Source: Clostridia bacterium
GTDB taxonomy: Bacteria > Bacillota > Clostridia > TANB77 > CAG-508
Direction: 5' to 3'
Assembly: GCA_017511265.1 (NCBI GenBank)
Contig: JAFWKV010000001.1
Coordinates: forward strand, 553-64,552
DNA length: 64,000 bases
Shown here: one piece after another, positions 9,636 through 63,304 of the stretch
Layout: each line of letters begins with the position of its first letter
Numbering within the stretch: the stretch's first letter is position 1
Notes under the pieces: model-generated
What the model saw: the letters and a program-made list of their open reading frames with translations, nothing else
Told to the model about the DNA's origin: nothing
Databases searched by the model: none
Made by a program: the position numbers and the translations under genes

Positions 9636-10619
9636 ATGATTGATAGAGATTCAAATCCGGATTTTTTAAATTCGTTTTTAGACTATTCTATTACAATATT
9701 AAATAAATCACCTAATTCTGTAAAAGAATACAATTATGACATAGCTATGTTTTTAAAATATATAATGATTCGTTTTAAACTTACAAAAGAAACTGACTAT
9801 TCTAGTATAGACATTTCAAAATTTAATGTATCTACATTAAAAAAAATATCTTTGGATGATATTCACGCATTTGTTTCTCATCTTGCAGTTGACAATAAAA
9901 GCAAAGCAACAACTCGTGCAAGAAAAGTCTCAACAATTAGAATATTTTTTAAATATCTTTCTGAAAAAGAAAAAGTATTGAAAATTAATCCTGCTCAAAA
10001 CCTTGAAACGCCTAAGTTGGATAAACGTATTCCTAAGTATCTATCCCTGGATGATAGCAGAAAGCTTTTAAATATAGCTGCTGATGAAAATAATAGAAAT
10101 AAAGAGCGTGATTTTGCAATAATTACATTATTTTTAAATTGTGGTTTACGTCTTTCTGAGCTAGTAGGAATTAATATAAAAGATATAGATTTTGGTGAAT
10201 ATAAATTAAATGTTATAGGTAAAGGTAATAAAGAGCGTACAATTTATTTGAATAAGGCTTGCATAAATGCAATAAATGATTATTTAGCAGTTAGACCACG
10301 TGAAGGTGTTAAAGTAGATTCTAAACATTCTGAAAAGGCTTTATTTTTAAGTGAACAACGTAAGCGTATTAGTAATCGTACTGTTCAATATATTGTTGAT
10401 AAGGAACTTGCTAAAGCTGGTCTTGATACTACAAAGTATTCTGTTCATAAATTAAGACATACTGCAGCTACTTTAATGTATCAGTATGGTAATGTAGATA
10501 TTAGAGCACTTCAAGAATTATTAGGACATGAAAGTATTTCTACTACTGAGATTTATACTCATGTTAATAATGAACAAGTTCGTAATGCTGTTGAGAGTAA
10601 CCCCCTTGCAGATATGTAA
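9636..10619 (+). CDS. Tyrosine recombinase, XerC/XerD-like
   Basis: C-terminal catalytic motifs GLRLSEL, HKLRHTAAT and LLGHESISTTEIYTHV. Confidence 0.85.
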   Translation: MIDRDSNPDFLNSFLDYSITILNKSPNSVKEYNYDIAMFLKYIMIRFKLTKETDYSSIDISKFNVSTLKKISLDDIHAFVSHLAVDNKSKATTRARKVSTIRIFFKYLSEKEKVLKINPAQNLETPKLDKRIPKYLSLDDSRKLLNIAADENNRNKERDFAIITLFLNCGLRLSELVGINIKDIDFGEYKLNVIGKGNKERTIYLNKACINAINDYLAVRPREGVKVDSKHSEKALFLSEQRKRISNRTVQYIVDKELAKAGLDTTKYSVHKLRHTAATLMYQYGNVDIRALQELLGHESISTTEIYTHVNNEQVRNAVESNPLADM

Positions 10620-17535: not shown

Positions 17536-17690
17536 TGCTGTATTTTGGGACGGGGCGACAGGTGATGCCTTGGGGACGGAGGAAAAAGTATCACCTGTTT
17601 AAAATGTTAAATCTAGTTAAAATATAAACAGGTGATACTTTTTCCTCCGTCCCCAAAGCATCACCTGTCGCCCCGTCCCAAAATACAGCA
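17536..17690. repeat. 155-bp modular palindrome (GGGAC-module family)
   Basis: The left arm TGCTGTATTTTGGGACGGGGCGACAGGTGATGCCTTGGGGACGGAGGAAAAAGTATCACCTGTTTA has a near-perfect complement on the right. It starts 2 nt after the dgt-like stop. Confidence 0.9.
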
Positions 17691-19906: not shown

Positions 19907-19939
19907 GTGATACTTTTTCCTCCGTCCCCAAAGTATCAC
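19907..19939. repeat. Solitary GGGGACGGAGG-loop hairpin
   Basis: A 10-bp stem GTGATACTTT/AAAGTATCAC encloses the 13-nt TTCCTCCGTCCCC. The same unit occurs at 52537, 52603, 17.6 kb and 41.1 kb. Confidence 0.75.
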
Positions 19940-19954
19940 TTTATAGCACATAAA

Positions 19955-20302
19955 AAGAGTAAATCTGTAAGCCGGGTTCTGTCGTTTAAAATAGTCATTT
20001 ATCTAGGATATATATTACTATATATCTCAAGCCACGCAGGTTAGAAGTTGCCGAGCAGGCTTAATCTTCAATTTAGGTGTTGCTCCAGATGGGGTTTACA
20101 CAGCCCAATATGTCACCATATTGGCGGTGAGCTCTTACCTCGCCTTTTCACCCTTTCCGTAATCTACGGTGGTTATTTTCTGTTGCACTATCCTTAAGGT
20201 CACCCTCACTAGACGTTATCTAGCATCTTTGCTCTGTGGAGCCCGGACTTTCCTCTCGTAGTATCTTTCGATATTCTACCAGCGACTATTCAATTTACTC
20301 TG
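19955..20302 (-). ncRNA. rnpB: RNase P RNA (bacterial, type B-like)
   Basis: The minus strand contains GAGGAAAGTCCGGGCTCCACAG and, near the 3' end, ACAGAACCCGGCTTA. P1 pairs AGAGTAAAT (20301..20293) with ATTTACTCT (19964..19956). An extended -10 TGTTATAAT sits just upstream. Confidence 0.85.
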
Positions 20303-32437: not shown

Positions 32438-32466
32438 AGGGACGCAAACTTGCGTCCCTACTTTTA
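32438..32466 (+). terminator. Rho-independent terminator of the 121-aa gene
   Basis: Stem AGGGACGCAA/TTGCGTCCCT followed by ACTTTTAT. Confidence 0.65.
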
Positions 32467-32860
32467 TGCTGTCTTTTGGGACGGGGCAAAAAAACATCAG
32501 CCTGCTGTCAATGGGGACGTAGCAATTTGACAACCTGCCTTTGGCTAAGTTCCCTTAATTTTTTATATTAGCGCTTGATTGGAATAAGCATTAGAAATTG
32601 TTTAGCTAGAAAATGAGGGATGTTCACGGTACTCGTGTTGAATTATGAATTATAGAAAAATTTGATTTTTCTATAATGAAGAATGATACGCGAGGGACTG
32701 AGTGAAAGAGGCTCATTTTCTAGCCTTACAATTTCTTTGCGAATGAAATGAACAAGCTAATATAAAAAATTAAGGGAACTTAGCCAAAGGCAGGTTGTCA
32801 AATTGCTACATCCCCATTGACAGCAGGTGATGTTTTTTTGCCCCGTCCCAAAAGACAGCA
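32467..32860. repeat. 394-bp nested (Russian-doll) palindrome of the GGGAC-module family
   Basis: The ~105-bp arms (TGCTGTCTTTTGGGACGGGGCAAAAAAACATCAGCCTGCTGTCAATGGGGACGTAGCAATTTGACAACCTGCCTTTGGCTAAGTTCCCTTAATTTTTTATATTAGC) differ at 2 positions. The core equals the 13.2-kb element family, with a further small palindrome inserted at its centre. The right end abuts the mutS stop. Confidence 0.9.
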
Positions 32861-41053: not shown

Positions 41054-41214
41054 GTGATGCCTTGGGGACGGAGGAAAAAGAAGCGATGCCTTGGGGACGG
41101 AGGAAAAAGTATCACCTGTTTATATTATAGCTAGAATTTACAGTTTAAACAGGTGATACTTTTTCCTCCGTCCCCAAGGCATCGCTTCTTTTTCCTCCGT
41201 CCCCAAGGCATCAC
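41054..41214. repeat. 161-bp modular palindrome (two GTGATGCCTTGGGGACGGAGG-type modules per arm)
   Basis: It begins the base after the GH30 TAA, and its last base is the first base of the convergent gene's stop codon. It shares its inner module with the 17.5-kb palindrome. Confidence 0.9.
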
Positions 41215-44204: not shown

Positions 44205-47200
44205 TTACTGTCCAAAAGCTGAAAAGAATGTACTCAATGCATTTGCTGCATTATTTAGTAATCCGTTATTAATTTGTGTCAGGTAAGTTGTGTAATATGT
44301 TGTTCCATTAATTGTTTCTGTATCATCTTTTCTTTCATAGTTATCTTCTACCTCTGCGATATTTCCATCTACACTACCCAAAACGCCCTTCACAATTCCA
44401 TCATAGAATTTAATTGTTCCAGTATTTATTATACCATAGGTTGTTCCTCTTATTTCAGGTGAGGACATATTCACTGTTCCATCTTTTTTTCCTATTTTAA
44501 CTGTTGAATTAGCTGAATTTGTAATAGCAGCATTTGTAATACTACCTTGAGTATCTAAAATTATTGTTCCATCTTCTATTGTTACGGTTCCACCATTAAA
44601 GTTTTGAATAGTTCCTCTAGGCTCACCTGATGGTGCATTTCCTGTTGTAGTAGAACTTATAGTTGAATTACCTCTTATTTCTACAGTACCTCCATTGTTG
44701 TATACTGCTTGTCTTTCTCCTGTTGATATCATAGTTACTCCATCAATTATTACTGTTCCGCCTGCATAATTGTCAATTGTAGAAGATAATTGTACTACTG
44801 AATTTATAGTTCCATTTGTAAGTTTAATTGTCCCATAATTGTCTATAACTTTACTACTACCATTATTACTTAAAGTATTATTTTGTAGATTTATTATTAT
44901 ATTTTGTCCTGCAGATGTTTTAACATATTCTGTAGAATCCGTTAATATATTAATTGTTACCTCAGTACCATCTTTTGGTACTTGATTAACTGCCTCTTGT
45001 AATGTATTATAAGATACATCATTAATTTCTGCAGTGTCAACTACAGTCCAGTGAGCATAATATGTTACATCTTCATTTATTATTGTATCTTCTGTTATTG
45101 ATTCTCCACCTTCTTTTGATGTATACCATCCATCGCATTGGAATCCTGCTCTGGTTGCTTTTGGTAAGTCTCCTAAAGCAGTTCCACTTTCAACTAGTTT
45201 TGTTCCATTAATTATTTTACCACCATTTGGGTCGAAAGTAACTGTATATGTACTTTTCCAATGTGCATAAAATGTTATATCTCCATCTATTATTGTATTT
45301 TCTGTTATTTTGATTCCACCTTCTGCTGATGTGTACCATCCGTCAAGCATATATCCTGATTTTGTTGCTGTTGGCAATGTTCCTACAGGGTCACCTGGTT
45401 TTACTTTCCTTGTTCCATTAGCTATTGTGCCTCCATTTGGATCAAATGTTACAGTATCTTTTTCTTTTAGATAAACTACGTCATATGTATCACTATCTAT
45501 AGTTTCTGTTTTGTGTGCTATTACATAGTCATCTTCTATATTTTTTAAATGTTGGTCATTATCAGTTGCACTTGTTATTCCCTTTATAACACCATCATAA
45601 AAACTTAAATCTACAGTACTGCTTAAGCCATACTTTTTGCCTTGTATTATAGGAGTATTCATAACCATATTTCCATCTTTTGTTCCTATTGTCAGTGTTG
45701 TTTTACTATTATATAAGCCAGTTCCTGCACTAGATTCTGACCTTATTGTTCCTCCAGTTATTGTCATTTTGCTTTCATTTGATACTGCTATTCCATTATT
45801 TGTTCCATTAGTTGATACTATTGTTCCTCCAGATATTGTAACTGTTCCATTAGTATTATGAACTGTTCCTCTATTTTTGTTAGTTTCTACTGTTGCTTTA
45901 GAACTTAAATATGCATTTCCTGTTATTTCTATGGTTCCTCCTTCATTATATATTGCTTGTCTAGTTCCTGTAGTTATAATGCTTCCGCCACTAATTGTCA
46001 AATTGGCTTTTGATTTATTGTTAATAGCTCCTTGTGTTGTTGATGAGGTTATTGTTCCATTTGAAATTGCAAGAGTTCCAAAGTTATTAATTACAGGATT
46101 TACTCCATTATTACTTATAGTAAAATCTTGTAAATCAAATACAATATTTTTACCTGCAGCTACTTCAAGTTTTTCACTTGTATCTCTTAATAAAATAATT
46201 GTTTTTTGAGGTCCATTAGCAGTTACTGCATTTATAGCAGCTTGTAAAGTACTATAAAATGTCCCCTCAATTTCTGCTTTTTCTGTTTTCCATTGTGCAT
46301 ATAATGTTATATTTCCTAAATTATTTACTTCTTGTTGATATGTATATCTTGTTCCACTTCCATCAGGTTCGGTATTCCATCCCGCAAATGAATAATTTGT
46401 TTTTTGGAATGTATTTTTCCTTAATTTTTCTGTTTTATTGAACGGAATTGTTTGTGGTTCCATTGTTCCTGTTGCACTTGCATCATTTTTATCAAATGTT
46501 ATTGTATATCCTCCATTTGTAAAGTATCCTGGGTTTGATGTGCCCTCATCTATGTGAGCATATGTATAACTTACATTAGATGCATCATATACTGTGCCTG
46601 CTCCACCGACAATGTTAGTTGCACCAATAAACATATCATTACCATTTGCTGAATCCGTTATACCTGTTGTTACAAAATTTGATGATGCATAAATTGTTAT
46701 TAAATCTGTACAACCCTGAAACATATTATTAATTTTTGTTACATTTGTAGTATTAAAATTACTTAAATTTAAAGTCGTTATTCCACTACAACTATAAAAC
46801 ATATATTCCATAGTTGTTACACTGCCAGTATCAAATCCACCTAACTCTATGGTCGTTAAACTGCTACAGTTTTTTAACATTGCTTGCATATTTGTTACCA
46901 TTGATGTATTAAAGCTACTTATATTCAGACTTGTTAAGCCACTACATCCATCAAATATATTTGACATATTTGTTACTTGTGTTGTATCAAAGTTGCTTAA
47001 GTCTAACCCAGTTAGACCACTGCAACCTTGATACATACCCTGCATATTTGTTACACTTGAAGTATTAAAATGATTTACATTTATACTTGTTAAGCTACTA
47101 CAGTTTTGAAACATATTTCCCAAATTTGTAACATTGCTTGTATCAAAATTGCTTACATTTAGTGTTCCAACATTTTGGCAATTTGAAAACATATAGTGCA

Positions 47201-50200
47201 TATCGTTTACATTACTTGTATCAATTTCACTTACATCCAATGTGCTTACATTTTTACAATTATAAAATAGAAATTCCATATCAGTTACTTTGCTTGTGTT
47301 AAGGTTCGATAAGTTTAACGTAGCATTAATACTATTTCCTATATATGCAAATAAATATGCTGAGCTTGAGTTAGCAAATACTCCACCATTTTGTCCTATT
47401 ACTACATCATAGCCATTTGTGTTATCACCAGTTGCCCATAGTAGCACTCCTCCATTACTTTGCTGTGATACGTCCCAACATGTTGTATTATCTACTGTAT
47501 GGCCATCTATTGATGTTGCAAATGATATGCTCTTTATTTTGTCTCTTGTTATGCTTGTACCTAAGAATGTTCCATCTGCTGTAGCAGTTGTGTTTGCTTT
47601 AAGATTTGCTTCTTGCCAATGTGCATAATAGGTTACATCCTGGTTTCCCATTATAGTATTTTCTGATATCTGTTCTCCATTTTCTGTGAACCATCCTAAA
47701 AATTGGTAACCTGTTTTTCTTGCTGTTGGTAATGTTCCAATTCTTGTATCTTCAGCTACTGTTCTTGTATCTTCGCTTGCTGTTCCACCATTTGCATTAA
47801 ATGTTACAGTATAATCTTTGTAGAAGTATTTTGATGTTATTGTTATGCCATCTCCAAGTTTTGATATTGGAACCGCAACTACAGGACGAATTCTTTTACT
47901 ATTTCCATAATAGTTATAACTAACGCTTCCTTTAATTTCAACAAACATTTCATTGCTTTTGTCATTAGCTGAAGGAGAAGATAGCCACCATGCTCCAGTA
48001 CTTGGAGAATATATTGCTTCATCCATTTCAGATGAATATCCTAATCCACTAACATAAAAACTATAGTTTTCTACCTCACCACCTGATGTATTTTTTCCTA
48101 TTTTATATCCTGTTGCATTTTCTTCTACACTACAATCTAATTGTATTTCATGTGTTGCATTATATGATGCAACAAACATTTCTAATGAAGGTGCTCCTAC
48201 TGCCCAAAGTGCATAGTCTGCTTTATAATCATTCCAATTTGTTGTGTCTAATAAAGTTTGCAAACCTTGTATATTACTATTTATATTTGTTCCATCTGAT
48301 TTTAATTCCCATGATGAGTTTTGTGTATATTTTTTGTTTATCTTTTCACCTACTGATGATATTGTAGACGTTCCAAATCCAGGTAAATTGTTTAGAGCAT
48401 TATTTCCAATACTATCAGATATCAAGTATGCATAATTATTATCTGCATAGAACAATCTCCATATTCTATTATCGACTGTGCTATTTCCTGTAGTATAACC
48501 TGTTACTATTTTACCAAAATCACTTGAATATGTTGAATTTACTGTACCTAGCTCTAAATATCCATTTGAAAAGTATCCTGGATTTGATGTACCCCCATCT
48601 ATGTGTGCATATGTGTGGTTTATATGAGATGCATCATATACTGTGCCTGCTCCTCCTACAAGTTTAGTTGAACCAGTAAACATATCTGTACTATTTTCTA
48701 CTGCTGTCGTAACAAAGCTTGATGATGCATATATTGTTGCCAAATTAGAGCAATTAGCAAACATAGTATTCATACTTTTAACTTTTGATGTGTTAAAGCT
48801 ACTTACATCTATTTCACTTAAGGCATAATCATATGCAAACATTCCTTCCATTGTAGTAACATTTGATGTATCAAGTCCACTTACATTCAAACTTGGTAGT
48901 GTTCTGCAATTATAGAACAGATAGCTCATATTTGTCACATTGCTTGTATCAAAGTTTGTTAAATCTATTGTGGCATCTATACTATTTCCTATATATGCAA
49001 ACAAATATGCTGAGCTAGCGTTTGCTACAACACCACCATTCTGTCCGATTACTACTTCATATCCATTTGTGTCATCTCCAGTTGCCCATAGTAAAACACC
49101 ACCATTACTCTGTTTTGAGACATCCCAACATGTTGTATTATCTACTGTGTGTCCATCTATTGAATTTGTAAACGATACTTTCTTTATTTTGTCTCTAGTT
49201 ATGCTTGTTCCAAGGAATGCTCCATTTTCTGTTGCTGTTGTATTTGCTTTTAGGTATGTTCCCCATTGTGCATATAATGTTACTGTTCCATTTTCTGTTG
49301 CAGTTAAATTGATTACTTCTTGTTTATCTAAATAAGTTGTTCCGCTTCCATCAGATGCAGTATTCCAGCATGCAAAAGGATAGTTTGGATGTTGGAATGT
49401 ATTTTGGCTTAAATTCTGTGCTGTATTATATGTAAATGTTTGTGCTTCCATTTCTCCTGTTGCATTTTCGTCATTTTTGTCAAAGTTAACTGTATATTTA
49501 AACGCTTCCCATTGTGCATACAGTGTATGTGCTCCTGTTTGTGTTACAGTTGTATCTGCTGTGATATAGTTAGGATTTTCTCCTGGATTTTGTTCTATTG
49601 TCCAACCTTTAAAGCTATAATTTTCTCTTGTTGGAATTGGTAAGGTTCCATATTTGCTATCATATTCTACTTCTATTTCACTTGGTTCTACTGTTATTCC
49701 GTCTCCTGCATTAAATGTTACTTTAAATTTATTTACTTCCCATTGTGCATACAGTGTATGTGCTTCTGTTTGTGTTACAGTTGTGTCTGCTGTGATATAG
49801 TTAGGATTTTCTCCTGGCTCTTGTTCTATTGTCCAACCTTTAAATCTATAATGTTCTCTTGTTGGGATTGGTAAGGTTCCATATTTTTTACCATATTCTA
49901 CTTCTATTTCACTTGGGTTTATTGTTATTCCGGTTCCTGCATTAAGCGTTACTAAATATTTATTTACCATATTTATAAGAATTGCTATGGTTTTGCCTTT
50001 ATTTTCTTCCTTTACAGTTAAAGTTATTGTATTAGGTGTATATTTATTAGCAACTACAGTAAGAACATTTCCGTTTATCTCTGCATGTATAAATTCATCC
50101 TCATAATTTTTTGAAAAATTGCTACTTTGTGCGGTATTTGCTATTGTATACTCACCTGAATCTTCTCCCATTATGTTTACAGTTCCAGTTTGCCCTTTAG

Positions 50201-51311
50201 ATAATGTTAATTCGGTTACATCTGCATAGATTGATGCTTCTCCAACTGTTAATTTTGCTATTCTTGTTGATAATTCCTTTCTATATGTTTGATTAGTTTG
50301 TACTATTTCACAATAATAATATGTATTATTCATATCCATTGTTGCTTCCGGAATTGTGTAAACAGCATTTGTTGCACCTTCAATTGCTACTTTGTTAGCA
50401 CCATCACTACTTGTGCATTTATACCATTGATATGTAATGCTTCCATTTCCTGTTTCAGCTACATTAAAACTAAATGTTGCTGGTTTTCCTTCGGCTACAA
50501 ATACGTCTTGTAAGTCATCAGCTATTGTCATTCTACTTATTACAACAGTAGTTTGGTTTACAGATTCGTTTCCTGCTGTATCGACAATTTTTACATACCA
50601 AACTCCCTCATTTAATACCTCTATAGTGCAATTTGGTTCTATTGTTTCAGTTTTTGCTATTTTCCAATCAACTTGGTTAACAGATGATCCCTGTCCATAA
50701 TAAATAGTATACTTTTTTATGTCTCCTGTTGTCTCGATATTATTTATATAAAGTTTGTTTTCAATTGATGATAGGTTAAATGATATTCCTGAGATTGGCT
50801 TTTTGTATTCAACATTATATCTATCATCATCCAATCCACTAACAGTCCATATAGTTTTTTCTTTATACTTGATTCCATCTAGAGAAATAACTTTTCTTCG
50901 TTTTACATTAACTAAAAATTCTTGATCTATATTTTTAAATCCCAAGCTTTCTATTGTAGCTTTATCATAATATCTATAATCTTCTTGATCTATAATTTCT
51001 TCTTCTATTCCTTCTAATTGTTTCTTTTCTTCTTTTGCTCCATCGAAGGCCTGCTTTTGTTTGTCTTGTTCTAAATCTTGTAGTGTTCTTCCCAATTGTA
51101 GAACAGAATCATCACCTTTTCTATAATTTTGTTCTAATTCATTTACCTTATCTTGCATCATTTGTAATTCTGTACCACGGGCAGCTAGTCTTGCATTTTC
51201 TATAGAGTCCCTTCCTGCTGTAATTCCTACTCCTGATAAGATTAATAATAATATAATTGTTATTACTAATGCTGCAAGTGTAATACCTTTGTTACTTACT
51301 AAATTGTTCAT
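44205..51311 (-). CDS. Giant (2368 aa) surface protein: pilin-like N-terminal signal, Listeria-Bacteroides (Flg_new) repeats, two BspA/DUF285-type LRR blocks, two beta-helix-like modules
   Basis: The N-terminus NKGITLAALVITIILLLILSG resembles a class III (prepilin) signal. YTVTFNANGG...GYxFxGW...YAxW units are Flg_new repeats. Runs of LxxFDTSNVTNMxxMFxxC are DUF285/BspA LRRs. GT/NG-rich segments look like a parallel beta-helix. Confidence 0.85.
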   Translation of the reverse strand: MNNLVSNKGITLAALVITIILLLILSGVGITAGRDSIENARLAARGTELQMMQDKVNELEQNYRKGDDSVLQLGRTLQDLEQDKQKQAFDGAKEEKKQLEGIEEEIIDQEDYRYYDKATIESLGFKNIDQEFLVNVKRRKVISLDGIKYKEKTIWTVSGLDDDRYNVEYKKPISGISFNLSSIENKLYINNIETTGDIKKYTIYYGQGSSVNQVDWKIAKTETIEPNCTIEVLNEGVWYVKIVDTAGNESVNQTTVVISRMTIADDLQDVFVAEGKPATFSFNVAETGNGSITYQWYKCTSSDGANKVAIEGATNAVYTIPEATMDMNNTYYYCEIVQTNQTYRKELSTRIAKLTVGEASIYADVTELTLSKGQTGTVNIMGEDSGEYTIANTAQSSNFSKNYEDEFIHAEINGNVLTVVANKYTPNTITLTVKEENKGKTIAILINMVNKYLVTLNAGTGITINPSEIEVEYGKKYGTLPIPTREHYRFKGWTIEQEPGENPNYITADTTVTQTEAHTLYAQWEVNKFKVTFNAGDGITVEPSEIEVEYDSKYGTLPIPTRENYSFKGWTIEQNPGENPNYITADTTVTQTGAHTLYAQWEAFKYTVNFDKNDENATGEMEAQTFTYNTAQNLSQNTFQHPNYPFACWNTASDGSGTTYLDKQEVINLTATENGTVTLYAQWGTYLKANTTATENGAFLGTSITRDKIKKVSFTNSIDGHTVDNTTCWDVSKQSNGGVLLWATGDDTNGYEVVIGQNGGVVANASSAYLFAYIGNSIDATIDLTNFDTSNVTNMSYLFYNCRTLPSLNVSGLDTSNVTTMEGMFAYDYALSEIDVSSFNTSKVKSMNTMFANCSNLATIYASSSFVTTAVENSTDMFTGSTKLVGGAGTVYDASHINHTYAHIDGGTSNPGYFSNGYLELGTVNSTYSSDFGKIVTGYTTGNSTVDNRIWRLFYADNNYAYLISDSIGNNALNNLPGFGTSTISSVGEKINKKYTQNSSWELKSDGTNINSNIQGLQTLLDTTNWNDYKADYALWAVGAPSLEMFVASYNATHEIQLDCSVEENATGYKIGKNTSGGEVENYSFYVSGLGYSSEMDEAIYSPSTGAWWLSSPSANDKSNEMFVEIKGSVSYNYYGNSKRIRPVVAVPISKLGDGITITSKYFYKDYTVTFNANGGTASEDTRTVAEDTRIGTLPTARKTGYQFLGWFTENGEQISENTIMGNQDVTYYAHWQEANLKANTTATADGTFLGTSITRDKIKSISFATSIDGHTVDNTTCWDVSQQSNGGVLLWATGDNTNGYDVVIGQNGGVFANSSSAYLFAYIGNSINATLNLSNLNTSKVTDMEFLFYNCKNVSTLDVSEIDTSNVNDMHYMFSNCQNVGTLNVSNFDTSNVTNLGNMFQNCSSLTSINVNHFNTSSVTNMQGMYQGCSGLTGLDLSNFDTTQVTNMSNIFDGCSGLTSLNISSFNTSMVTNMQAMLKNCSSLTTIELGGFDTGSVTTMEYMFYSCSGITTLNLSNFNTTNVTKINNMFQGCTDLITIYASSNFVTTGITDSANGNDMFIGATNIVGGAGTVYDASNVSYTYAHIDEGTSNPGYFTNGGYTITFDKNDASATGTMEPQTIPFNKTEKLRKNTFQKTNYSFAGWNTEPDGSGTRYTYQQEVNNLGNITLYAQWKTEKAEIEGTFYSTLQAAINAVTANGPQKTIILLRDTSEKLEVAAGKNIVFDLQDFTISNNGVNPVINNFGTLAISNGTITSSTTQGAINNKSKANLTISGGSIITTGTRQAIYNEGGTIEITGNAYLSSKATVETNKNRGTVHNTNGTVTISGGTIVSTNGTNNGIAVSNESKMTITGGTIRSESSAGTGLYNSKTTLTIGTKDGNMVMNTPIIQGKKYGLSSTVDLSFYDGVIKGITSATDNDQHLKNIEDDYVIAHKTETIDSDTYDVVYLKEKDTVTFDPNGGTIANGTRKVKPGDPVGTLPTATKSGYMLDGWYTSAEGGIKITENTIIDGDITFYAHWKSTYTVTFDPNGGKIINGTKLVESGTALGDLPKATRAGFQCDGWYTSKEGGESITEDTIINEDVTYYAHWTVVDTAEINDVSYNTLQEAVNQVPKDGTEVTINILTDSTEYVKTSAGQNIIINLQNNTLSNNGSSKVIDNYGTIKLTNGTINSVVQLSSTIDNYAGGTVIIDGVTMISTGERQAVYNNGGTVEIRGNSTISSTTTGNAPSGEPRGTIQNFNGGTVTIEDGTIILDTQGSITNAAITNSANSTVKIGKKDGTVNMSSPEIRGTTYGIINTGTIKFYDGIVKGVLGSVDGNIAEVEDNYERKDDTETINGTTYYTTYLTQINNGLLNNAANALSTFFSAFGQ

Positions 51312-51408: not shown

Positions 51409-51436
51409 CTGTCTTTTGGGATGGGGCAAAAGACAG
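51409..51436. repeat. Solitary GGGAC-family hairpin
   Basis: CTGTCTTTTG-GGATGGGG-CAAAAGACAG, 4 nt beyond the rpe stop. No U-tract follows in the rpe direction. Confidence 0.65.
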
Positions 51437-51440
51437 CACT

Positions 51441-52097
51441 CTATCGTAGTTCATCAATTATTGTTTTGTAATTTGTTGCACTTAAAATAGCAGTACCAGA
51501 AACGAGAATATTGGCACCTGCTTGTTTTACGCTGTCAGCTGTACGAAGATTTATACCTCCATCTGCCTCAATGTCTGTTTCTAAGCCTTGCTTATCAATA
51601 TAATCTTTTAAAGTTTCTATCTTGTTCACCATATCAACAAGCAAGGTTTGCCCACCTTTACCTGGTTCTACTGTCATAACAAGACATAAATGAACATAAG
51701 GCAAAAATTTAAATACATTTTCTATTGGCGTGTTTGGCTTTACTGAGATTCCTACCTTGCAATTTAAATCTTTTATTAATTTTATCATTTCCATTACTTC
51801 TTCGTCATTTTTGCAAGCTTCTAAGTGAAATGTTATAATGTTTGGCTCTACTCCTGAAAAATCTAAAATAGCTTCTTTTACATCTTTAACCATTAAGTGT
51901 ACATCTAGTGGTAGGTTTGAAATTCTTTTTATGTATGATGCATATTCTAGCATTTTTTGGTATGTGTCTTTTTCTACAAATTTGCCATCCATTACGTCTA
52001 TGTGGAAATAGTCTGTTTTTGCTTGTTCTAGCGCTATGAATGTTTTTGATTCTTCTCCTTTTTTTACAGAAAGAATTGAGGTTGAAATTTCTATCAT
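51441..52097 (-). CDS. rpe: Ribulose-phosphate 3-epimerase
   Basis: Typical Rpe motifs (HIDVMDGKFV, LVMTVEPGKGGQ, DGGIN) and conserved rsgA-rpe synteny. Confidence 0.92.
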   Translation of the reverse strand: MIEISTSILSVKKGEESKTFIALEQAKTDYFHIDVMDGKFVEKDTYQKMLEYASYIKRISNLPLDVHLMVKDVKEAILDFSGVEPNIITFHLEACKNDEEVMEMIKLIKDLNCKVGISVKPNTPIENVFKFLPYVHLCLVMTVEPGKGGQTLLVDMVNKIETLKDYIDKQGLETDIEADGGINLRTADSVKQAGANILVSGTAILSATNYKTIIDELR

Positions 52098-52115
52098 TTT
52101 TTGTCTCCTTTTTTT

Positions 52116-52145
52116 GATGTTTTTTGGGACGGGGCAAAAAACATC
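52116..52145. repeat. Solitary GGGAC-family hairpin
   Basis: GATGTTTTTTG-GGACGGGG-CAAAAAACATC. It has the same loop as the unit at 51409 but a different stem word. Confidence 0.65.
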
Positions 52146-52215
52146 TTTTTATTAATTAAATCATAATATCATCTATTTTACAACTCTTAAGTCGAATTTT
52201 GTCGATGAAAAGTTC

Positions 52216-52244
52216 TTGCTTTTACGCTGTTTCCATAATATAAT
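52216..52244 (+). promoter_or_regulatory. Putative promoter of the 24-codon ORF
   Basis: TTGCTT (52216..52221), a 17-nt spacer, then TATAAT (52239..52244). Confidence 0.4.
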
Positions 52245-52289
52245 AATTACACCTCTTTATAGAGAGTATCTTTACAAGGAGGTGATGTT

Positions 52290-52364
52290 ATGACTAGTTA
52301 CGAATTAATCTTTTTCTTAATAATTTTATTATTAGAAAAAGATAATGACAAAAGTCAAGATTAG
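52290..52364 (+). CDS. 24-aa ORF with a strong SD (candidate small toxic or leader peptide)
   Basis: AAGGAGGTG lies 7 nt upstream of the ATG. The product is MTSYELIFFLIILLLEKDNDKSQD*, and a terminator follows directly. Confidence 0.4.
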   Translation: MTSYELIFFLIILLLEKDNDKSQD

Positions 52365-52379
52365 TACATAACTAATCAT

Positions 52380-52412
52380 AAAAAACAGGTAGCTGTAGAC
52401 TACCTGTTTTTT
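52380..52412. terminator. Bidirectional rho-independent terminator
   Basis: AAAAA-ACAGGTAG-CTGTAGA-CTACCTGT-TTTTT. The A-run and T-run flanks allow termination in both directions. Confidence 0.65.
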
Positions 52413-52466
52413 GTTATGTCTAGTTACGACTTAATAACAAAAGTCAATTTTGCAATTGCTAATATT

Positions 52467-52495
52467 ATAATACTATTTTTTTTCTCTTTTGTCAA
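52467..52495 (-). promoter_or_regulatory. Putative minus-strand promoter firing toward the bidirectional terminator (candidate antisense sRNA)
   Basis: The minus strand reads TTGACA (52495..52490), a 17-nt spacer, then TATTAT (52472..52467). Confidence 0.4.
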
Positions 52496-52536
52496 TATTT
52501 TTTGTCTTATTTTTCCAATTTTTATTTAAAATTTTA

Positions 52537-52633
52537 TGATACTTTTTCCTCCGTCCCCAAAGTATCAGCTTTTGCCTAATTTTTCCATTTTTTATTTCTA
52601 TGTGATACTTTTTCCTCCGTCCCCAAAGTATCA
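52537..52633. repeat. Tandem pair of GGGGACGGAGG-loop hairpins downstream of rsgA
   Basis: TGATACTTT-TTCCTCCGTCCCC-AAAGTATCA occurs at 52537..52567 and 52603..52633, within a ~65-bp tandem duplication. Confidence 0.8.
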
Positions 52634-52672
52634 TAAATTTTGCAAAAGTTGTTATACCTTTCTTTTGCAATT

Positions 52673-53476
52673 TTACCGCTGGGCTAGTGCAGCTTTTACA
52701 CCACAGTTTTTTTCTTTTATATGTGTGCAACCTACAAATTCACATTTTTCTACATAAGGTGCAATATCAATAAAATAATTTTCTAGGTCTTTTGCTTTTA
52801 TCTCATTTAGTTCAAAGTTTGCAAATCCTGGTGTGTCTGCTATAAATGTGTTGTTATCTAATTCATATAGTTTTACTTGTGTTGTTGTATTTTTTCCTTT
52901 TTTATTTTTTTTACTTATTTCACCTTCTAATGTAATGTCTTTATTGAACAATGCATTTATTGTTGTTGATTTTCCTACTCCTGAATTTCCAGAAAACGCA
53001 CTTATTTTTCCTTTTAGTACAGCTTTGACTTCTTCAATGCCTTCATTTGCTTTTGCATTTGTTGCTATAACTGTATATCCTGTTTTTGTATATATGTCCA
53101 CAATTTTTTTATATGTGTCTGCTAAGTCTATTTTATTTACTACTATTATTGGTTTTATTTGTAAATATTCCGCATATGCTAATTGTTTGTCTAGCATTAG
53201 CAAATCTGGCTTTGGGTGTTTTGTTGATATTATAAATATTATTTGTTCAATATTTGCTATTTTAGGTCTTTTTAATTGCATCTTTCTTGGCTGAATTTCG
53301 TTTATTATGCTGTCTATTTCTTTTTTGTCTTCTAGTTCTTCAATTTCTACTATATCCCCAACAAGAGGGGTTACCCCCTCTTGTTTAAATTTGCCTCTAG
53401 CACTTGCTGAATACACATTGCCATTAGCTTTTACTTTATACAAATTTGAAATATTTTCTATAATTATTCCTTGCAA
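52673..53476 (-). CDS. rsgA: Ribosome small-subunit GTPase RsgA (CpgA), with the C-terminal tail out of frame
   Basis: OB fold, circularly permuted GTPase (NKIDL, GNSGVGKST) and zinc motif CEFVGCTHIKEKNC. The expected tail GKIAKERYNNFCKIY lies in another frame (to 52576). Confidence 0.88.
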   Translation of the reverse strand: MQGIIIENISNLYKVKANGNVYSASARGKFKQEGVTPLVGDIVEIEELEDKKEIDSIINEIQPRKMQLKRPKIANIEQIIFIISTKHPKPDLLMLDKQLAYAEYLQIKPIIVVNKIDLADTYKKIVDIYTKTGYTVIATNAKANEGIEEVKAVLKGKISAFSGNSGVGKSTTINALFNKDITLEGEISKKNKKGKNTTTQVKLYELDNNTFIADTPGFANFELNEIKAKDLENYFIDIAPYVEKCEFVGCTHIKEKNCGVKAALAQR

Positions 53477-56758: not shown

Positions 56759-56822
56759 GGAAAACTTTTTTAAAACGTCCCCAAAAGTTTTCCACAGTCC
56801 ACCCTGTCCCCAAAAGTTTTCC
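56759..56822. repeat. GGGAC-family hairpin plus half-repeat, overlapping the cotJC stop
   Basis: GGAAAACTTTT-TTAAAACGTCCCC-AAAAGTTTTCC is followed by a second GTCCCCAAAAGTTTTCC. The last base is the first base of the cotJC stop codon. Confidence 0.75.
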
Positions 56823-63070: not shown

Positions 63071-63304
63071 AAAAGTGATGCCTTAGCTGTCTTTTGGGAC
63101 GGTGTTGTCAATGGGGAAGGAGCTGTCAATGGGGACGTGCTTAAATGAAAACGTGTCAATGGGGACGGGTTTAAATGACACACATTAAAAATGTGTGTCA
63201 TTTAAGCCCGTCCCCATTGACACGTTTTCATTTAAGCACGTCCCCATTGACAGCTCCTTCCCCATTGACAACACCGTCCCAAAAGACAGCTAAGGCATCA
63301 CTTT
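63071..63304. repeat. 234-bp near-perfect palindrome with three TGTCAATGGGGA(A/C)G modules per arm
   Basis: The ~115-bp arms differ at one position, and the centre is CACATTAAAAATGTG. The outer shell reuses GTGATGCC and CTGTCTTTTGGGACGG words seen elsewhere. Confidence 0.9.

Follow-up and report, generated by a model that had tools for sequence, protein, structure and literature searches.

Between rsgA and rpe, on the 64,000-nucleotide stretch of DNA analysed here (the window), lie 575 bp containing two hairpin units of one stem family (family 1), a toxin-antitoxin-like module and, ahead of the ribosome-binding site of rpe, a hairpin unit of another family (family 2). Other units of the same kind were found after rpe, after the RNase P RNA gene (rnpB; 19952-20301, minus strand) and elsewhere in the window, which belongs to a MAG from an uncultured gut member of the Clostridia (1.127 Mb, 29% G+C, 86% complete, 89% coding). 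The heptamer GGGACGG is referred to below as the core of the units, which are as follows:

52537..52567, minus strand: family-1 unit, arms (A/C)TGATACTTT / AAAGTATCA(T/G), minus-strand loop GGGGACGGAGGAA
52603..52633, minus strand: family-1 unit, first copy of a 66-bp tandem pair
52116..52145, plus strand: family-2 unit, GATGTTTTTTG-GGACGGGG-CAAAAAACATC, core on the plus strand
51409..51436, plus strand: unit with the degenerate core GGGATGG, CTGTCTTTTG-GGATGGGG-CAAAAGACAG
19907..19939, minus strand: family-1 unit, located past the RNase P RNA gene at a distance of 12 nt
56759..56793, minus strand: unit with the variant core GGGGACGT, GGAAAACTTTT-GGGGACGTTTTAA-AAAAGTTTTCC
17536..17690, no strand assigned: palindromic composite made up of modules of the same kind, its four cores (17547, 17573, 17647 and 17673) being ordered ++--
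41054..41214, no strand assigned: palindromic composite of family-1 modules, four cores in the order ++--
63071..63304, no strand assigned: palindromic array built from GTGTCAATGGGGACGG modules; it contains cores at 63096, 63162, 63208 and 63274 as well as variants
32439..32850, no strand assigned: composite of about 370 bp bordered by GCTGTCTTTTGGGACGGGGC modules, + ... - polarity, cores at 32478 and 32843

The six single hairpins at the head of this list, which had been picked out by the initial annotation, are real: their coordinates, arms and loops were all verified in the sequence, and when folded as single-stranded DNA each is predicted to form the hairpin with an open loop of 8 or 13 nt (-5.2 to -9.3 kcal/mol; z-scores of -3.3 to -6.6). 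Their description as solitary units does not apply to those at 52537 and 52603, which constitute one 66-bp tandem pair and not two independent units. The stems were said to be made from different words, but three of the six units (19907, 52537, and 52603) have an identical stem and share the minus-strand sequence (G/A/C)TGATACTTT-GGGGACGGAGGAA-AAAGTATCA(C/T/G). The near invariance of the loops holds for the 5-7 nt of GGGAC(GG), but not for the remainder of the loop, which is specific to the stem family, and the unit at 51409 departs from it with its variant GGGATGG.

As regards the position of the units, that at 52603 starts 40 nt past the rsgA stop codon, and that at 52537, the second copy of the tandem pair downstream of rsgA, was present in every strain contig examined. 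The unit at 52116 is antisense to rpe, ends 6 nt ahead of the rpe Shine-Dalgarno sequence and is the only unit of terminator-like appearance, on the plus strand alone, where no gene reads into it. The unit at 51409 starts 4 nt past the rpe stop codon and is antisense to transcription. The unit at 19907 was also found in strain contig L141, and that at 56759 is followed by a half-unit extending to about 56822. GGGACGG occurs 18 times in the window, as compared with 0.35 copies expected from shuffled sequences, and the full family-1 unit gives 7 matches where none is expected.

The whole genome (G000, its contigs being denoted by C numbers and its relatives by other G numbers) contains 244 copies of GGGACGG, versus roughly 7 expected according to an estimate based on the base composition, which amounts to an approximately 30-fold excess. 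Among the 227 cores with enough flanking sequence to be scored, 139 lie within the loops of hairpins with 7 or more pairs, and the 61 distinct left-arm strings of these hairpins can be grouped into about six families. The units consist of a 7-13-nt arm, 0-4 nt, GGGAC(GG), another 4-8 nt and the complementary arm. In this layout the core is always placed on the loop's 5' side, and most of the 244 copies are borne in this way by a loop of 8-13 nt; the mean G+C content of the stems is 0.30 and the median loop length is 13 nt. The families recognized are the following:

Family 1: left arm GTGATACTTT, loop GGGGACGGAGGAA
Stem family with left arms GATGTTTTTT, GCTGTTTTTT and GCTGTCTTTT: loop GGGACGGGG(C/T)A
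Stem family with left arm GTGTCAAT: loop GGGGACGGGCTTA
Stem family with left arm GTTGTCAAT(T): loop GGGACGGTTCT
Stem family with left arm GCCAATA: loop GGGACGGAGAATT
Minor family of this genome: carries GGGGACAG

When the intergenic hairpins were enumerated on the basis of structure only, GGGAC was the sole recurring G+C-rich loop word (55 of 445 hairpins), the other words being AT-rich. In a comparison of 18 stem families, eight from this genome and ten located beside RAYT genes of nine other genomes, GGGAC was present in all 18, an invariance which is partly due to construction, since the set was chosen for having the core. The arms of these families remain able to pair in 120 of the 126 cells, with three or four pair types at every position, and the likeness between the stem words amounts to 33%, which is about random. 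The initial proposal that the loop is more conserved than the stem is thus borne out, in the form of a conserved core carried by varied stems which still pair. A count of wobble mismatches between the arms, intended to show which of the strands folds, gave 16 G.T versus 55 A.C, figures which are dominated by one imperfect family and by bulges and were given no weight.

The other 88 of the 227 cores have no hairpin at the level of the unit: they belong to half-modules, in which a left arm is joined to the core and which are stacked in arrays, and the hairpin may therefore not always be required. The left arm is biased at the cores (position -5 is C in 85% of cases and position -2 is T in 96%), and judging from these biases, part of it may also be read. 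In about a dozen places, half-modules are fused to modules of other families 0-3 nt past the core. These chimeric junctions are suggestive of breakage just 3' of the core, slippage being the alternative.

The units are almost all intergenic, and a handful lie within real genes; the other units classified as genic mostly overlap stop codons or over-extended ORF starts. Units were found in 20 of the 85 convergent intergenic regions, 49 of the 660 co-directional ones and 2 of the 76 divergent ones. About 48 of the clusters are solo units, and the tandem arrays mostly have periods of 27-30 nt. The distance from the upstream stop codon to the beginning of a sense copy is approximately 10-40 nt, and 5-40 nt separate the end of an antisense copy from the following start. 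This closeness to stops and starts is best explained by selection: the units occur at the ends and beginnings of genes because a genome which is 89% coding tolerates them only at boundaries and in a few linkers. At about ten gene ends in this genome (among which C6:16203, C26:6651, C36:7947, and C9:43798), the upstream ORF terminates within a sense unit, for instance in the form AAT GGG GAC GGT TCT AAT TGA, which reads NGDGSN*. The unit supplies the last codons and the stop in these cases, and the repeat therefore constitutes the C-terminus of several proteins.

Three units are read in frame inside genes. An inverted doublet in argS (G000 C20:16362-18162) adds about 31 residues (...DEDGESDALGTEEKVSPSPEGDTFSSVPKASLSPS...) in the linker preceding the catalytic domain, a single unit encodes GDTLGTEEKVSL in a SpoU/TrmH-like methyltransferase gene (G000 C32:19585-20434), and another single unit encodes DVFGDGAKKHH in an AddA-like helicase-nuclease gene (G000 C39:30767-34385). 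The core contains CGG, and all three units are read in frames without CGG, a sample (n = 3) which is too small to show avoidance. Copies inserted in frame inside genes are known to occur in the case of REPs (PMC3733652).

It had been suggested in the initial annotation that the loop, displaying GGAGG in the transcript, might bind 30S subunits, or mimic or occlude the anti-Shine-Dalgarno sequence, and thus protect the 3' ends of the upstream RNAs. The display itself was confirmed: after both rsgA and rnpB, the transcribed strand shows GGGGACGGAGGAA in an open 13-nt loop. The reported scarcity of U-tracts, which this proposal can likewise invoke, was also found, the 8 nt past the stem in the direction of the upstream gene containing 2.3 T on average and at least 6 T in 2% of cases; after rpe, the hairpin at 51409 is followed by A7 on the transcribed strand, as reported. 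However, GGAGG is restricted to the GTGATACTTT family, the others carrying GGGACGGGGC, GGGACGGGCTTA or GGGACGGTTCT, and the feature common to all the families is GGGACGG. For co-directional gene pairs, 49 cores are found on the sense and 42 on the antisense strand, so that half of the transcripts would carry CCGUCCC instead; the ratio for the family-1 units alone is about 12:10 (hand tally), and the units at 52116 and 51409 would yield the C-rich CCCCGUCCC when transcribed. The units read in frame inside genes also speak against a ribosome-directed role of the loop, which we regard as very improbable. When the whole window was searched against Rfam 15, no family reached its gathering threshold over the units, and a cut-off of E <= 1 in the region 52080-52680 brought up nothing either. 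Intrinsic terminators were ruled out as a candidate by the U-tract counts, the composition of the stems and the size of the loops.

Two Y1_Tnp genes were identified in the genome, at C37:8958-9692 and C8:24856-25518. They encode proteins of 244 and 220 aa, respectively, which are 44% identical, and the HUH (HxH) and Y-x3-NP (YIHxNP) motifs are invariant in the transposase alignment. The best NCBIfam model is that of the 'REP-associated tyrosine transposase' (NF047646, cut-off 80), which gives 64.8 bits with the C37 protein and 81.1 bits with the C8 protein, and the sole relative with a solved structure is the E. coli TnpA-REP (4ER8, E = 9e-5). The C37 gene is flanked by inverted exact family-1 units (C37:8929-8961 and 9846-9878), one of which overlaps the stop codon of the transposase gene, and the C8 gene is flanked by inverted units of the GCCAATA family. 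No family-specific transposase gene was found for four of the six stem families in this assembly, which is 86% complete. In the clusters of mixed orientation, the order GGGACGG...CCGTCCC was observed 58 times and the reverse order never, and this polarity is that observed around the transposase genes. The suggestion that the conserved loop might be a recognition site for a protein is supported by these data, the best candidate being a Y1/HUH transposase of the RAYT/TIRYT kind, since inverted units flank both genes.

The relationship between gene and repeat was analyzed in 40 relatives originating from human, ruminant and rabbit gut. Their GGGACGG counts are bimodal, amounting either to 66-274 or to background values. 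The transposase gene was detected in 24 of the 40 by a profile search; 15 of the 16 relatives without the gene have GGGACGG at background, and clear amplification of the core occurs among the 40 only in the gene-bearing genomes, apart from G029. In four genomes (G017, G023, G024, and G040), the gene is present and GGGACGG is not amplified, an alternative core having been shown to exist in G024 only. Among the 28 RAYT loci of the relatives, about 17 are flanked by a hairpin whose loop is of the GGG(G)AC type and whose stem is another one, as read from the listed hairpins, and wherever both flanks could be seen, the second is an inverted copy with the same polarity as in G000. G024 and G021 have RAYTs which cluster in one clade (99/98 support) and are flanked by loops reading GGTTCCGGGTTT. 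The prediction was tested that this 12-mer would be the one amplified: it is present in 210 copies in G024, 64 copies in G021 and none in G000, G004 or G023. Each genome therefore amplifies the loop core flanking its own enzyme.

These findings also bear on the possibility that a different system acting on DNA (such as a nucleoid or replication protein, DNA uptake or restriction-modification) uses GGGACGG as its site, the hairpins being spread by recombination or slippage without any Y1 enzyme. The 27-30-nt periods of the tandem arrays and a 66-bp strain polymorphism described below fit slippage or recombination, and G029 has a repeat bearing GGGGACGG, the gene of the transposase clade not having been found in this 99% complete genome by the profile search. 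The genome G029 belongs to another family of the same order (loci L150-L155) and carries about 180 copies of GGGACGG in the repeat TGTCCCTACAA...TTGTAGGGGACGGCGTCC(C/T)CGACGTCCC, where the motif forms part of the stems. No such system was identified, however, and a plain protein site needs neither a hairpin nor a fixed polarity of the pairs nor inverted copies around Y1 genes. Given that amplification tracks the Y1 gene and that the amplified core is the one flanking this gene, an explanation of this kind seems quite unlikely.

E. coli REPs are known to stabilize upstream mRNA. By this precedent, the units might be host expression elements, either factor-independent terminators or stem-loops stabilizing 3' or 5' ends, with the transposase genes as incidental neighbours; the location of sense copies near upstream stops and that of antisense copies near the next starts, together with the scarcity of units in divergent promoter regions, would be in line with this. 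However, they have no U-tract, their stems have a G+C content of 30% and their loops measure 8-13 nt, whereas the ordinary terminator-like hairpins of this genome have small loops and A/T-tract arms. In addition, a stabilizing function would leave unexplained why a G-rich loop is kept on both strands. The strict polarity of the mixed clusters and the change of core with the transposase point rather to a DNA-level element, and we consider a role as host expression elements unlikely. The inverted pairs flanking the transposase genes, as well as the core which changes with the transposase from one genome to another, argue likewise against the 30S-binding role discussed above, and the tempting reading of the loops as mimics of a ribosome-binding site can be set aside.

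We therefore favour, with a probability of roughly three in four, the explanation that the hairpins belong, as solo or tandem units, to a REP/TIR-like family maintained by the candidate RAYT/TIRYT-kind Y1 (HUH) transposases encoded on C37 and C8. The G-rich loop motif would most likely be a tag read by the single-stranded DNA transposase encoded in the genome. In single-stranded DNA, such as the lagging-strand template, the arms could pair and leave the G-rich heptamer exposed and unpaired at the 5' side of the loop, where the enzyme might read both this tag and the shape of the hairpin; if so, the stems would be free to drift as long as they still paired. The units would spread as inverted pairs derived from the flanks of the transposase gene itself, and the later decay of these pairs would give rise to solo units, stacked half-modules and tandem copies. 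If mRNA ends are affected at all, this would be a by-product. Binding, cleavage, the choice of strand and the reading of the loop by the Y1 enzymes are all features which we infer from the sequences. That the tag, and possibly the nick site, sits in the hairpin loop in these long Y1 HUH enzymes (TIRYT or subclass 2.1-like) is a more tentative proposal.

The closest known system is the TIRYT/TIRtron, the apparent likeness being based on the length of the protein, the motif, the weak C-terminal HTH signal and the absence of the GTAG-reading residues. TIRtrons encode long Y1 proteins and are flanked by inverted repeats with the common motif GGGGWSAS (PMC3733652), and the TIRYTs have been equated with TnpA-Y1 subclass 2.1 and RAYT group 1 (PMC6006769, PMC5581495), members of the latter group having been reported in Clostridia (PMC5581495). 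The proteins of the present clade are 220-260 aa long, versus 165 aa in the case of the E. coli TnpA-REP, and have a weakly HTH-like C-terminal region, where the matches are variable (HTH_24, 1e-3; HTH_3, 7e-6 in one member; HTH_23, 0.16); the residues reading GTAG are not conserved, VFRDR being present where E. coli has IWQPR. The gene is located here between inverted repeats with a G-rich motif, GGGGACGG matching 7 of the 8 positions of GGGGWSAS, and all 8 positions are matched in GGGGACAG, which occurs in the minor family of G000 and beside the G005 gene. Unlike what has been described for the TIRYTs, the motif is located here in the loop of a short hairpin, the stems vary between families and genomes, several stem families use one core, and, with 244 cores in 1.13 Mb, the number of copies per Mb is one of the highest, whereas the TIR families in the literature are only moderately abundant. 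Both automatic and manual searches for REP-like secondary structures adjacent to subclass 2.1 genes were reported to have found none (PMC6006769).

The substrates which the E. coli TnpA-REP binds and cleaves are REP hairpins formed by folded single-stranded DNA, and a conserved motif adjacent to them is required (PMC3333891, PMC3479197, PMC8266576). In the canonical REPs, the stem is G+C-rich, the loop measures 2-5 nt and the 5' foot carries an unpaired GTAG or GTGG (PMC6006769, PMC3733652). The present units resemble the REPs and REPINs of the E. coli REPtron and Pseudomonas in that they are short extragenic palindromes with a high copy number, often forming inverted doublets, which are likewise scarce in divergent promoter regions, and in that a low-copy Y1 gene lies between inverted copies and the enzyme and the repeat vary together across genomes. 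They differ from them in that no conserved tetranucleotide (GTAG/GTGG or CGTC) is present at the foot of the hairpin, GGGACGG being located in the loop, in that stems with about 30% G+C and 8-13-nt loops replace the G+C-rich stems and 2-5-nt loops, and in that the host is a low-G+C gut member of the Clostridia and not a proteobacterium.

In the HUH Rep origins of circoviruses, geminiviruses and rolling-circle plasmids, the hairpin has a variable stem and a loop containing a conserved nonanucleotide. These origins share with the present units an invariant loop sequence, a stem which need only pair and an enzyme of the HUH family as the likely reader, but we are dealing here with dispersed chromosomal repeats, the partner of which is a relative of the Y1 transposases and not a Rep protein. 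This parallel would therefore be a resemblance in the possible mode of action and not a matter of family membership.

The REP-RAYT association is textbook knowledge in the case of Proteobacteria, and the longer Y1 subclass, which also occurs in Clostridia, had no REP-like substrate in the published analyses. An enzyme of this longer kind is accompanied here by hundreds of hairpins with a conserved loop. The features which are new for the TIRYT class are the tag located in the loop, the interchangeable stems and the very high copy number; no description of this layout was found in the literature searched, and searches with the motif strings returned only unrelated eukaryotic primers and promoters. 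If the tag is indeed read in the loop, many stem families could be served by a single enzyme. The second-largest TnpA-Y1 subclass, so far an orphan, would then have its natural substrate revealed, and REP-like colonization of genomes would extend to gut Clostridia at a very high density. The loop-tagged hairpins and the enzyme lend themselves to a concrete and cheap biochemical test. The repeat family also accounts for contig breaks in the MAG, for intergenic regions filled with palindromes and for in-frame insertions in essential genes such as argS.

As regards the breaks, the ends of several contigs of G000 (C2, C3, C5, C9, C21, C36, and others) fall inside GTGTCAATGGGGACGG arrays or other units, and the strain contigs L141-L149 likewise break within repeat units. 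The repeats are a main cause of MAG fragmentation, including that of contigs from other samples.

The recent history of the rsgA-rpe region was examined by comparing species and strains. In L001, which is the nearest species available, rsgA adjoins rpe, where G000 has 575 bp including three units, and the approximately 31 extra residues of ArgS are absent in 11 congeners. The compact rsgA-rpe region of L001 and the absence of the ArgS doublet in the relatives indicate that units have been inserted. Contigs of the same species from other samples all have the same rsgA-rpe layout save one, L124, which carries a single family-1 unit, one copy of the 66-bp tandem pair being missing; a change of this kind in the copy number can be produced by ordinary recombination or slippage. 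When compared at the units, the strain contigs either carry the same units or end inside them, and no clean pair of filled and empty sites was found among them when the exact neighbours (rpe, methyltransferase, hydrolase) were looked up. The elements look old and stable within the species.

The part of the intergenic region between the family-1 and family-2 units (52160-52520) carries what may be a type I toxin-antitoxin module, arranged in a par/Fst-like manner. A Shine-Dalgarno sequence (AAGGAGG) precedes a hydrophobic ORF of 24 codons, MTSYELIFFLIILLLEKDNDKSQD, on the plus strand, and the best promoter-like site of the region is present on the minus strand (TTGACA-17-TATTAT, 52495-52467). 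The direct repeat GTTATG(A/T)CTAGTTACGA flanks a bidirectional terminator (about 52380-52412), and since these repeats lie on either side of the terminator, the convergent transcripts would be complementary over the start codon of the putative toxin. No Pfam match was found, and a small ORF similar to that of 24 codons starts at G000 C2:26929. Directly downstream of rpe, the window contains an ORF of 2368 aa (44205-51311) with repeated Flg_new and DUF285 domains, which suggests that it encodes a giant surface protein; in the strain contig L118, this ORF is split into two ORFs of 310 and 2044 aa.
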